A model generated the notes under the pieces. It saw only the letters and a program-made list of their open reading frames with translations. It searched no databases and had not been told where the DNA came from. DNA of 63,330 nt, filler included, from Chlamydiia bacterium (GTDB lineage: Bacteria > Chlamydiota > Chlamydiia > Chlamydiales > FEN-1388), in the NCBI GenBank assembly GCA_903848235.1. It is 14 parts of 14 records of this genome, joined end to end, with 100 filler letters (N's around TTAATTAATTAA, not from the genome) between each part and the next. Parts side by side here need not be neighbours in the genome. Positions count along the whole stretch, not along the records: positions 50,856 to 52,704 come from CAINFV010000216.1; 13 more parts are not named here. One strand, 5' to 3'. Below, in pieces: positions 50,756 through 55,220 of the stretch (within the stretch, counting starts at the first letter, position 1; each line of letters opens with the position of its first letter). A program made the position numbers and the translations under genes.

Positions 50756-50996
50756 NNNNNNNNNNNNNNNNNNNNNNNNNNNNNNNNNNNNNNNNNNNNT
50801 TAATTAATTAANNNNNNNNNNNNNNNNNNNNNNNNNNNNNNNNNNNNNNNNNNNNGAACGCAAATAAGCGAGCCATGAAGGTGATATCCTTATTTCATAT
50901 GCTCATTATTATTTCTGATCAATTTCGTTTATAGTTATAATCAAACATAACATGCTTATAGAAAATATTATTTTATTACTAAAACAAGGATGTTTT

Positions 50997-51227
50997 ATGT
51001 CATTTCAGGCTTTAGATAACCTGCCCCCTCTCGGTGGTGCTTTCTCACCACTGGCTGCCGCAGATGTTTCTGACGACAGTAGTGATAGGGCCTTACTGAA
51101 AGATACCACAGACGCCATTGTCCAAGAGCTTTGTAGGAAAGCGCTGATGCAAAAAGATGCTGCTTCGCTGGTTGCCATTGGGGATATATACGCAAAGGGC
51201 GCAGGGGCGTTGCCGCCCCCGCTGTAG
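50997..51227 (+). pseudogene. 5' part of a Sel1-repeat gene split by inversion
   Basis: ends in the first half of a Sel1 repeat, DAASLVAIGDIYAKGAGA. Confidence 0.7.
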
Positions 51228-51238
51228 GAGAACACAGC

Positions 51239-52585
51239 TTATTGTTGACTTGGTAGAAAATCCTTGAGCCTTGGAAGTTGTTCTAGCAATTGAGGTTCCC
51301 ATGCTAAATTTTCCCGATACTCAGGATTTTTTTCCAAAAAAGCGCCTAGCCTTTGTATGTAGAGATTGATCCATCTCTGGGCGGCCGATTCGCATCCCTC
51401 TTCTTCGTCGTCTCGTTCACTTTCCGAAGCTGACGAAGGCTCACTCTCCGAATCTGATGAAGAGGCCTCTTCAGCCATTTTCCTATGTAGTGCTCGTTCT
51501 ATTTCCGATATAATATCGTCACATCCATACGATTTTAGCCACCGTATGGCCGTAGGATGGCCCCGGTTTGCGGCCGCAATAAAGTAGGGACGGGCTCTTT
51601 GAAAACAGTCTTTTCCACCTTCGTGCTCCTCTCGCCTTGCCTGGGTCCAGCGAGCCAAAAGCATCATGACTTCAGGGCTGAGTCTATCATCTCTTGCAAA
51701 AATGGCCTGTATGGCGGCTCTTTCAGCAGACAGCATATCAGCAGCAAGGGAGTGCACAGCCTCTTTCCGTACTTGGCCCACCAGAGCCAGTATTCCCGCT
51801 AGCAGTTGAGACGGCACCATTGTCTCCTTCACCATGTACGGATCTATTCCGTGTCGTTGACATAAAGCGCCAAGAATATTTTCTTGATACATCTGCCGAG
51901 AGGATACAGCGTCTGCACGTTCGTCTGCTGGCCATAATGAATTCAATAACGACAGCTGTTCAAAGCCGAGCATGATGGCGCTTTTCTCCAACTCTTCATC
52001 GCCCTGTACTTTGCGCAAACACGTTTCATCTTCGTTCACCTGTTCTAAACACAGATCATGCATGAAGCGATTGGCCGCCTCTTCACACTGCACGTCAAGG
52101 GGGATTCCTTCCTGTATCTCCTTCCCTAGACAGGTACCACGGCCATATGCTAAGTATAATTCAGGGTCAGATGCTCCACCATCACTCCCGATTCTAAGCT
52201 GTCTTTCAACCCATGAATACTCAGAATAGAGGCTCAACAGCCGCTTCTTAGCATCTATATGACCTGCATCAGCCGCCAAACGAAGCCAACGAAAACATTC
52301 CGGCCCATTTTCCTTGTTCTCTATAGTGCCATCGCTGCACCCTCCCGGAACTGAGCAAAGTGACATACTATACATTCCTTCTGGGTCGCCACCACGCGCC
52401 GCCTCGGTTATAAGACGTTTGCGTTCGAAATACACTAAGAATGAATGCTGTCCAGCAGCGAGTTGGGCAAAATCCAAGTTCACCAAACGCATCTTCGCCT
52501 GTGCACTCCCTTCCGCGGCCCCCCTTCTATACCACCGTATAGCCAACCCGTCGTCGCGCTCAACCGCTCTCCAAAACATGTTCAT
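51239..52585 (-). pseudogene. 3' part of the Sel1-repeat gene, inverted
   Basis: begins with the second half of a Sel1 repeat, AVERDDGLAIRWYRRGAAEG; more repeats FRWLRLAADAGH, YFIAAANRGH. Confidence 0.75.
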
Positions 52586-52804
52586 AGTTGATCATTGCTG
52601 ATCAATGACCAAGTTTTGGCCAAGAGCAACCACGCTCTTGAATTAATTTCCTGGCGCTGCGATTGCTCGCCGTCCGTTCCCCCGCGGGACAGACAACTAT
52701 CCCCNNNNNNNNNNNNNNNNNNNNNNNNNNNNNNNNNNNNNNNNNNNNTTAATTAATTAANNNNNNNNNNNNNNNNNNNNNNNNNNNNNNNNNNNNNNNN
52801 NNNN

Positions 52805-53054
52805 CAGGTGCGAGTCGTTCCCTTCTCATCGAATTCGATGCAGACTTTTCCGGATTTTTTGGCTGTCCATAGGAGGACCTCTTTAAACCGTCCGATGAGG
52901 GACCGATTGTTCATGCCTCGCCTCATGGCCGTGGTTATGCCATTGCCGTGGGGAGCATAATCTCCTATTGCGATACAGTCATACTTTTGGCACAGGGCGT
53001 GAGCCAAGGTAAACATAAAAGTCTTTGTCTGTTCTCGACGTTTATGAAGAGCTC
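52805..53054 (-). pseudogene. tnpB: IS200/IS605 TnpB fragment (RuvC-II region to start of zinc finger), interrupted by the intron
   Basis: ALHKRREQTKTF..YDCIAIGDY..RRGMNNRSLIGRFKEVL..DEKGTTRT. Confidence 0.85.
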
Positions 53055-55220
53055 TTGCGACACGAAGCTGTTGAGAAAAGTTGTCTCTCAATAGAAGAGT
53101 CCACCCTTACAGCGGGGTGAATCTAGGGCTCTGAATAAAGGAGCGAGCCCGACAACGTAGCGAAGGGGTTATTTAATCCCGGGATTAAAACCGAAAGGTC
53201 ACAATCCTCCTGACAAGCCATTACGAACAGGTAAGCGCTAGATAGTGAATACGGTGAAATTAAATAAATCTGCGATAATGACCGTAACATAAAGCAAGCG
53301 GAAATGGCTTTTACGCTTAAGCCAAACGGTAATGAGAATGGGTGCAACGTCTGAGCACTACGTTCACGCTGTCCATAGTTCTCCGGTCAAAAGCAGGCAC
53401 CTACCTTCACGTACTCTTCTCAATGGAACGTGGGAACCTCGAATCGCTCCCAGATCAGTCTGGGAAAGTATCTCGTAAGAGACTACCGAAAACGATCCGA
53501 GATTGGGATCCTGGAAAAAGCGAAAGCTGATCTGTAATGGGTCAGATACGGGTTGAAACATCACCCGACACGAGAGTGAGCAGACTTCCAAGTGGTTCCT
53601 CTTTGTGAGAGAACTCGAAGAACCTATTTAAACGAGGGAAATGCAAATGACGACTATGGCCTCCACAGTTGGTGCGCCCCCGGCGAGAACAATACAATGG
53701 TCTTCCATCAATTGGAAGGCTGTTCAAAATCTTGTATATAAGCTTCAAGTGCGTATTGCAAAGGCTATAAAGTTAGGTCACTACTGCAAGGCCAAAACCT
53801 TGCAATGGATCCTAACGCATTCATTCTATGCTAAACTGTTAGCGGTCAAACGTGTAACACAAAACAAGGGCAAAAACACCCCTGGAGTAGATCACGTCAT
53901 CCTAAAGACTCCCAAACAGAAAATACGAGCGGTAGAATCTTTGAAGAGACGGGGATATAAATACTCACCTCTTAAAAGAATCTATATTCCCAAGAAGAAT
54001 GGAAAACTTAGACCTCTAGGAATCCCTACGAAAATCGACCTAGCTCAACAAGCTTTACATTTGTTGGCACTCGAACCAGTAGCAGAAACACTAGCGGATA
54101 AGCAATCATACGGCTTTAGACCCAAAAGGTCTCTTCACGATGCCATTGAAGGATGCTTCAACGCATTAGCAAGAAAAGGATCTGCACAATGGATTTTGGA
54201 GGGGGATATCAAAGCCTGTTTTGACAAGATTTCTCATGAGTGGCTGCTAAAACACGTCATCATGGATAAAAAGGTGCTCAAACAATGGCTAAACGCTGGA
54301 TATATGGAAAAAGAAGTCTTTCATTGTACCTCAGAGGGAACACCTCAAGGTGGCGCAGCTTCACCATGTCTTGCAAATATCGCCCTGGATGGCCTTGAAA
54401 AAGCCATTCTAGCAATAGGCAAGAAAAAGGATAAACTCCACTTTGTGCGTTATGCCGACGACTGGATTTGCACCGCTTCTTCCAGGGAAATTCTAGAACA
54501 AAAAGTGCTCCCTACCGTTATCAGCTTTCTGAAGGAGCGAGGATTAGAACTCTCTAAAGAGAAAACTTTAATCACGCACATCAATGAAGGGTTTAACTTT
54601 CTCGGATGTAACCTGCGCAAATATAAGAAGAAACTTATCATAAAACCAGGAAAGAAAGGAATCAAAACCTTTCTAGACAGCATTCGAGAAACTATTATCT
54701 CCATGCGCGCGAGTAAGGCGGAAAATTTGATTTACATCCTTAATCCAAAGATCCAAGGATGGACCAATCATTACTGCCACGTAGTCGCCAAACAGATCTT
54801 TTCCAATATCGATTCAAGCATTTTCAAAAGTCTCTGGGCATGGGCAAAAAGAAGGCATCCCAACAAACGTCTCCAATGGATTAAAGACAAGTATTTTACT
54901 CGAATTAACCAAAGAGACTGGGTTTTCTTCTCGCATCAGAAGGGCAAACATAAGGATGAGCATAAGGATGAGCCTTTGCTCACTTTAAAATCTGCTTCCT
55001 CTACACGTATCATAAGACACGTGAAAATCAGAGCTGAGGCTAACCCCTATGATCCTAACTTCAAGAGCTACTTTCAAGAAAGGAAACTCAAGCAAAGAAT
55101 GTCTAAATATAGCCGGGCGCCCACAGGCGACCTTAGAGGGGCTCGAGCCGTATGATGGGAAACTATCACGTACGGTTCCTAGAGGGGCGGGTTGCGGCAA
55201 CGCAACTCTGCCTACTCGGC
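53055..55220 (+). mobile_element. group II intron (IIB, CL1-like) with intron-encoded RT
   Basis: 5' TTGCGACACG; EBS2 CATAAA 53288-53293; EBS1 GAGCAC 53353-53358; domain V GAGCCGTATGATGGGAAACTATCACGTACGGTTC; domain VI ending CCTACTCGGC. Confidence 0.93.
53641..55155 (+). CDS. ltrA: group II intron reverse transcriptase/maturase without HNH endonuclease
   Basis: NKGKNTPGVD, RPLGIP, YGFRPKRS, EGDIKACFD, GTPQGG, RYADD, LNPKIQGW; stop inside domain V. Confidence 0.96.
   Translation: MQMTTMASTVGAPPARTIQWSSINWKAVQNLVYKLQVRIAKAIKLGHYCKAKTLQWILTHSFYAKLLAVKRVTQNKGKNTPGVDHVILKTPKQKIRAVESLKRRGYKYSPLKRIYIPKKNGKLRPLGIPTKIDLAQQALHLLALEPVAETLADKQSYGFRPKRSLHDAIEGCFNALARKGSAQWILEGDIKACFDKISHEWLLKHVIMDKKVLKQWLNAGYMEKEVFHCTSEGTPQGGAASPCLANIALDGLEKAILAIGKKKDKLHFVRYADDWICTASSREILEQKVLPTVISFLKERGLELSKEKTLITHINEGFNFLGCNLRKYKKKLIIKPGKKGIKTFLDSIRETIISMRASKAENLIYILNPKIQGWTNHYCHVVAKQIFSNIDSSIFKSLWAWAKRRHPNKRLQWIKDKYFTRINQRDWVFFSHQKGKHKDEHKDEPLLTLKSASSTRIIRHVKIRAEANPYDPNFKSYFQERKLKQRMSKYSRAPTGDLRGARAV

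Follow-up and report, generated by a model that had tools for sequence, protein, structure and literature searches.

IS607-family elements recombine over a shared GG dinucleotide, prefer (G)GG or TGGG targets and leave no target duplication (PMC6188088; PMC4058570; bioRxiv 10.1101/2023.11.20.567912). For end-joining by their transposase, TnpA, a circle and standard strand rotation have been proposed (PMC4058570), and circles have been shown for CboIStron (bioRxiv 10.1101/2023.11.20.567912). A rival proposal invokes sequential transfers, possibly after target capture (PMC6188088, section 17); in a model with paired ends, strand rotation would invert the DNA and not transpose it, and sequential transfers were suggested (PMC6188088). 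All products analysed in the same paper's assay were simple insertions, and TnpA of IS1535 was found to bind the left end far better than the right (PMC6188088). The accompanying TnpB protein in principle takes its guide from the bases that follow the right end (bioRxiv 10.1101/2023.11.20.567912; PMC10711439). IS607 lies near three inversion breakpoints of H. pylori, for which the part of the report available to us gives no mechanism (PMC8002640). In the literature searched, which was mostly non-subscription and had the original IS607 paper and supplements outside it, there is no report of a one-ended IS607 inversion, and the available parts of PMC13521648, PMC3627910 and PMC9956272 contain no one-ended IS607 event. 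Here we describe a real and apparently fixed knock-out of a bacterial gene at IS607 recombination cores, very probably neither a programmed switch nor an artefact.

The window, that is, the whole stretch analysed, covers 63,330 nucleotides from a Chlamydiia bacterium (assembly GCA_903848235.1) and consists of 14 contigs joined by N-linkers. The finding is on contig C216 (window positions 50856-52704; 1,849 bp). The source assembly, G000, comprises 2.35 Mb in 284 contigs, with 93% completeness, 4.85% contamination and a G+C content of 47.5%. The features of the locus are as follows.

50856..51079, plus strand: DNA upstream of piece A together with its start (90% identity to the C239 contig end)
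50997..51207, plus strand: piece A, the 5' part of a Sel1-repeat gene (ORFs, Sel1 profile)
51204..51207, plus strand: GGGG target motif in the last four bases of piece A (likewise at 8 of 8 left-end junctions and in two empty-site homologs)
51208..51238, no strand assigned: non-coding tail behind piece B (fold, reading of the left joint)
51208..52563, minus strand: inverted segment of 1,356 bp (Sel1 register, gene order; left joint bridged in run X5)
51239..52563, minus strand: piece B, the 3' part of the gene, 440 whole codons and stop (profile and protein searches)
52544..52563, minus strand: predicted TnpB guide of this element copy (bases after the right end, following the published guide principle)
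52564..52704, minus strand: IS607 right end, 141 bp to the contig end (98.6% identity to the L016 element)
52805..53056, minus strand: tnpB fragment of the same element at the start of contig C217 (98.4% identity to L016)

The C216 DNA is contained in sediment, freshwater and wastewater metagenome runs, and no RNA dataset is among the listed runs that contain it. G000 encodes four ATP/ADP translocases, three GroEL paralogs, one DUF1207 protein and a type III export gate whose best structure matches are PDB 7ALW and 6WA6, the latter presumably chlamydial; judged by these genes, the organism probably belongs to the Chlamydiota. A search for Chlam_OMP6 gave no match in G000, nor in any control genome. 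With the export gate and the translocases predicted in the genome, the Sel1 protein is only a hypothetical injected effector. Many repeat families lie at G000 contig ends (C103, C37, C122 and others, with 44, 22, 15, 7 and so on ends). C103 and C37 have in common a sequence that interrupts the termini of two other IS families and that, by its pattern, we take to resemble a group II intron end. Elsewhere in the window, contig C215 (47381-50236; 39% G+C against 47.5% for the genome) holds a 951-aa ORF without a Pfam family that is possibly phage-derived. Contig C219 (55967-59803) has a strong negative GC skew and different gene types, does not look chlamydial by eye, and may belong to the 4.85% contamination of the bin.

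Both ORFs named in the initial annotation are present. Piece A comprises 70 whole codons and the first base of a split codon, and it holds the first half of a split Sel1 repeat at 51159-51206; taken alone, it matches no Pfam family. The second half of that repeat lies in piece B at 52561-52505, and more Sel1-like repeats extend to about residue 125. The register was read with a Sel1 profile of 36 positions, for which 149 unrelated proteins supplied 441 repeats. Piece A closes on profile positions 1-16, scoring 8.6 bits against -4.8 in the next best register, and piece B enters the profile at position 18, scoring 23.6 bits against -8.7 in the next best register. For each half, a score as high was found at 1 of 200,000 positions drawn at random from the genome. 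When the halves are joined with one X at the break, the split repeat scores 32.3 bits, and with three or four X it scores -6.5 and -1.2 bits. Three residues occupy the break spot in 442 of 459 natural Sel1 repeats, and four in 10. The best score with one X and the natural spacing of three residues together indicate that the break split one codon, and therefore that the original gene would have had 511 codons. By this register, each of the two ORFs supplies the part of a single Sel1-repeat gene that the other lacks.

That a single Sel1 gene was split by an inversion had been the central claim of the initial annotation, and the register test bears it out. Its in-frame join into a 512-aa protein at a shared alanine codon does not stand: such a join sets the spacing of two X, which scores -15.4 bits against 32.3 with one. 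The alanine codon match is coincidental; the inversion has its breaks elsewhere, at 51207|51208 and 52563|52564, each placed to within the shared GG. The score of the split repeat is lower than those of natural repeats (median 78.1 bits, 5th percentile 51.5, both in-sample), and piece B reaches 29.6 bits on the Pfam Sel1 family, whose cut is 30.7; the Sel1 repeats of this protein are likely divergent. Sel1-type proteins matching the first ~125 residues number 368.

A protein search returned 369 proteins at E<=0.001 among 1.84 billion, and in the best 150 of the 369, the protein itself aside, the best stretches lie nearly all within the first ~125 residues. For the ~315 residues of piece B after the Sel1-like repeats, an acidic Ser-rich tract included, no homolog was found, and the Atlas returned only uncharacterised clusters, at 0.90-0.91, for residues 125-440, which are at most a lead. 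A match to the Sel1 gene was present in 1 of 40 relatives, weak and at Sel1 level. Colinear full-length homologs of the rejoined protein, which had been named as a check, were not found: only the protein's own cluster emerged from 8,000 scored candidates of 242-770 aa, and JGI metagenomes yielded none. The one-gene claim therefore rests on the Sel1 register test.

The right break (52563|52564) is the terminal base of an IS607 right end, with the terminal GG at 52565-52564. The sequence 52564-52704 recurs with the same first base and 99-100% identity at the ends of contigs C99, C273 and C282. Right-end remnants occur in C104 and C231, the latter also beginning at the same base, and related right ends with an identical start were found in 3 of 22 other genomes of the family; genomes of three other genera show this start. 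In the sequencing runs, element depth is several times gene depth, and many different flanks are attached at 52563/52564. A whole 2,145-bp copy, 98.6% identical over the part in the window, is present on JGI contig L016. Its TnpA scores 206.9 bits on NF033518 (cut-off 110) and has Pfam MerR and Resolvase domains; tnpB follows downstream in an overlapping ORF, and its product scores 138.1 bits on NF040570 (cut-off 100) and is below the cut-off of the narrower NF038280 (47.8 bits; cut-off 350). From these protein matches, the element is a previously undescribed member of the IS607 family, with a serine TnpA and a TnpB.

Left ends of the element number at least 7 in G000 itself, and full right ends at least 4. 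The tnpA gene is found there only as fragments at such ends, none over the NF033518 cut-off, and the left part of the L016 element is only 87-89% identical to the G000 left ends. The left and right ends differ from each other and have only short sub-terminal words in common. GG is present at the element ends and the target in 8 of 8 left junctions, in all right junctions listed and in two empty-site homologs, and there is no target duplication in the one collinear control pair, C173-C99. The right end folds strongly (z -4.48; 0 of 200 shuffles as good), has no Rfam match, and is likely, on the predicted fold, the omega-RNA scaffold. The 'MNMFWRA' start of the 448-aa ORF is transposon DNA, the right end supplying spurious start codons. 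Three features escaped the initial annotation: that the right break is an IS607 end, that the left break lies at a GGGG target, and that the element carries its own serine recombinase. Its observation that no invertase is on this contig carries no weight, the window being 14 joined contigs and this one only 1,849 bp long.

An IS with terminal inverted repeats, suggested by a 63-bp unit in C231, was considered and dropped, L016 being IS607. That unit (C231:308-370; L013) consists of two outward-facing right ends fused at the hairpin inside them, and may record slippage or another rearrangement involving copies of the element. Two further candidates for element copies, L017 (from an archaeal genome) and L015, were rejected, as they match a 20-nt pattern only. 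The L016 flanks 88-277 and 2417-2511 match different G000 host loci (C100-like and C22-like); given these flanks and the 87-89% identity of its left part, L016 is likely a mosaic or mis-joined metagenome contig and is not counted as a second case. In the TnpB of L016 (317-1765, minus strand), the RuvC glutamate is relocated to a position six residues ahead of the zinc finger, as it is in Fanzor-related TnpBs, and DPN stands in place of DPG (motif definitions, PMC10711439). Contig C217 (52805-55866) carries nested mobile elements: a 252-bp piece of tnpB at its start, then DNA of no relation to it and, at 53641-55155, a complete group II intron reverse transcriptase above the cut-off of TIGR04416. 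C217 and C216 are adjacent in the window, and their contiguity is only a candidate. The genes broken by other IS607 copies, in C21, C22 and C273, are an LRR-like gene, a methyltransferase-like gene from a tandem pair and an ORF of 221 codons (labels by eye from sequence), and there the right end likewise gives in-frame codons on the opposite strand.

At the left break, the last four bases of piece A are GGGG, and the Sel1 register places the break directly after them. GGGG precedes the element proper in 8 of 8 left-end junctions (7 in G000 and 1 in L016), and in the two empty-site homologs in G000 it is host DNA, with the right flank beginning directly after it. The last GG of 51204..51207 would thus be the crossover core of a host-to-host joint at 51207|51208. 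GGGG occurs at 0.29% of positions and has 13,704 sites genome-wide, 12 of them within 50997-52563. Piece A now reads into the tail and stops at 51225-51227, giving a 76-aa product. The tail holds the 5' arm and loop of a GCAA hairpin, as well as a second hairpin with a T-rich run on the plus strand (51221-51238). The GCAA-loop hairpin described earlier is present, the last bases of piece A pairing with its 5' arm (8 Watson-Crick pairs and 1 G-U). The version predicted to form after flipping would be made of transposon sequence and is not the original one. No repeated family of this hairpin was found in G000. The host flank on contig C143 would complete the hairpin with 7 of 7 Watson-Crick pairs. 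Hairpin completion was set aside as the sole test for the far flank, since the C182 flank completes it as well or better (8 pairs and 1 G-U); it was gene order that picked C143.

C239 represents a second allele, which links the locus to a recA block, and run X3 carries this allele into the locus. The gene at the C143 end has its ortholog immediately upstream of the C239 recA block in 5 of 5 relatives; G004 carries an extra ORF, and G001 retains another shared gene in the interval, with 12 nt in place of the Sel1 locus of G000. C143 ends, 12 nt after the stop of its gene, in GGGG and an IS607 left end in the required orientation. From the gene order in the 5 relatives, C143 is identified as the far flank, and would be the host DNA beyond this element copy; no contig spans the element, the C143 link being one of gene order. 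The probable order is the C239 block, piece A, inverted piece B, the element and the C143 block, with the outer blocks collinear with the relatives. In the control copy, the left end on C173 and the right end on C99 make up a collinear simple insertion without duplication. Gene-order pairing of the other element ends, carried out on 5 ends with marker genes (C44, C273 and C282 being left out), gave this one pair (C99-C173) and 4 left ends without a partner. The arrangement at C216 is best explained as one element whose two flanks are halves of different GGGG sites, 1,356 bp from each other.

The arrangement was compared with independent data in 4 of the 12 listed runs, as contigs only, with depth of ~2-6 on the gene and a 31-base rule for counting a joint as bridged. 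In run X5, from a study (P2) other than that of the main holders, a contig over 51108-51447 bridges the left joint with 1 difference in 340 bases, 100 bases on one side of the joint and 240 on the other. Run X3 extends 17 bases past the left joint and 24 past the right, in each case less than the rule asks, and X1 and X2 cross neither, so that the left joint is bridged in 1 of 4 runs and the right in 0 of 4. No strand-changing joint or uninverted form is among the matches listed in any of the four runs. In a protein collection, whose counts include the window's own contig and whose studies may overlap, the 76-aa product, which depends on the left joint, occurs on 2 + 7 public contigs as two alleles. 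Of five members of the long-protein cluster, three (on 4 contigs) begin with the element-derived leader, the other two begin at an internal Met, and none is full length. Two alleles are mosaic, being ~6-10% apart at 50856-51080 and 51217-51611 and identical in the middle of the gene (P0006/P0007, P0001/P0003), which suggests recombination within the population.

The inversion is real DNA and not an artefact. The initial annotation had listed an assembly or amplification chimera among its options, and a short contig that ends in a repeat might be expected of one; most runs with the DNA, moreover, come from one study, P1, possibly the assembly's own. A chimera would nevertheless have had to arise again in the X5 contig of another study and on the 9 contigs with left-joint and 4 with right-joint proteins (the window's own counted), and an artefact would not respect the target motif of the element at three joints, which makes this explanation very improbable. 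The inversion proposed in that annotation is upheld by the X5 contig.

The event looks fixed, with no uninverted allele found in the four runs or the protein collection, and this bears on a second earlier option, a programmed, reversible phase-variation switch of the intragenic inverton type. The inversion is clean, both pieces keep open frames, and a rare ON state is compatible with contigs that, at a depth of ~2-6, drop rare variants. Such a switch is still hardly credible here. The breaks have no inverted repeats beyond GG, and a transposon end forms one of the boundaries; G000 has 0 sites at which GGGG precedes the start of piece B, a strand-changing joint is among the matches listed in 0 of 4 runs, and the cluster, the only one to emerge from the 8,000 candidates scored, has 0 of 5 full-length members. 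The absence of an uninverted form from the four runs and the protein collection likewise tells against the option; the third one offered, a one-off rearrangement, fits the inversion that switched the gene off.

What is observed is three joints that each lie at GG, the identity of the element and its target motif. Chance coincidence of an unrelated inversion with a later element insertion exactly on its breakpoint is put below 1 in 1,000, given about ten copies and 13,704 GGGG targets. We think it rather probable that TnpA recombined one end of the element with a nearby inverted target in a one-off accident. The element would first have inserted normally at one site, probably the one inside the gene. 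TnpA would then have paired one end with the other, oppositely oriented GG core in place of the element's second end, and a conservative exchange would invert the intervening DNA, with a single host-to-host joint as the result and the element still in one copy. A left-end exchange after insertion in the gene and a right-end exchange after insertion in the downstream hairpin would give the same product. The left-end route is slightly favoured because the left end of IS1535 binds TnpA strongly and because of the X1/P0003 allele. In this diverged X1 allele, a different 14 nt beyond 51217, which completes the hairpin, is nearer to the C143 side than to piece A; its substitutions at 51270 and 51295 match P0003, and P0003 starts with the element-derived leader. 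The allele is a weak hint that insertion in the gene came first, coming from one contig at depth 2.1 that is possibly a fold-back artefact or an allele chimera.

Two other routes can lead from an IS607 insertion to this locus. In one, an element copy in the gene and an oppositely oriented copy in the downstream hairpin would recombine homologously and invert piece B, and the left copy would then excise precisely. This uses known reactions only: precise excision by CboIStron TnpA runs at ~5% overnight (bioRxiv 10.1101/2023.11.20.567912), the several ends counted above (at least 7 left, 4 full right) could supply the copies, and IS607 near three H. pylori inversion breakpoints (PMC8002640, Table 5) would be in keeping with it. 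It is nonetheless unlikely, needing four events, among them a second insertion within 1.4 kb although only 12 of the 13,704 targets lie in 50997-52563, and an excision that escapes TnpB-driven retention (bioRxiv 10.1101/2023.11.20.567912); the second copy has also left no trace at the left joint. The end product is the same for this and the one-ended route, and sequence cannot separate them. In the other route, a break at GGGG, from a TnpB cut or a stalled TnpA intermediate, would have been repaired by the host at the G/C-rich hairpin, through microhomology or a template switch, and one end of the element would have been joined in the process. The position of the left joint in a hairpin, with the last bases of piece A pairing with its 5' arm, would suit such repair, but the shared GGGG already accounts for most of that pairing. 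All joints, moreover, lie on the recombinase core and are clean, with no base lost or gained by the Sel1 register and the element ends, and we consider break repair improbable.

If a one-ended exchange did occur, ordinary excision of the element would not undo the inversion. The TnpB motif for this guide is likely GGGG. Since the predicted guide is the start of piece B and GGGG would be the motif, an active TnpB would cut an intact allele, in which GGGG is followed by the start of piece B (0 occurrences in G000), and would act against switching back. One may speculate further, though we think the idea somewhat doubtful, that IS607 TnpA exchanges one end at a time with a captured GG and that this locus is a frozen half-way local hop, held by the TnpB guide.

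A regulatory switch or a new effector system is not supported. One copy, two half-targets and a clean host-to-host joint are what single-end exchange predicts, and this natural product offers a simple reporter assay as well as a genomic signature. If the one-ended reading is true, IS607 elements would act as short-range invertases of their neighbourhood and leave a single copy with mismatched flanks, which can be searched for in complete genomes. One-ended inversion would also be a side reaction relevant to the use of these enzymes as tools. For annotation, an ORF starting inside a contig-end repeat, or an inversion without an invertase on a short contig, should be compared with contig-end repeat families.

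Among known systems, intramolecular replicative inversion by IS26 likewise inverts DNA up to a new target and splits a gene, as described in the available part of PMC4471558. IS26 is a DDE element, however, and yields two copies and inverted 8-bp duplications (PMC4471558), whereas here there is one copy, no duplication and a clean joint; an IS26-type signature was looked for at the left joint, and neither element nor duplication was found. Intragenic invertons resemble the locus in that inversion within a gene creates a premature stop and two ORFs; they have inverted repeats and occur in both orientations (PMC10028968), in contrast to the 2-bp core, transposon edge and single orientation seen here. 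Nearest to the element among known systems are IS607, IS1535 and CboIStron, which, like it, have a TnpA with MerR-HTH and serine-recombinase domains, a TnpB, a length of ~2.1 kb, GG at the ends, a G-rich target and no duplication of host DNA. Its target motif is GGGG and that of known IS607-family elements TGGG, and their published products are simple insertions, circles and precise excisions, whereas here the flanks come from two targets and there is a host-to-host joint. Hin, Gin and Cin, when they act at secondary sites, recombine a proper site with a poor chance site that shares the core dinucleotide. In the present case, the role of the proper site would fall to a transposon end, and that of the enzyme to a transposase of low target specificity.
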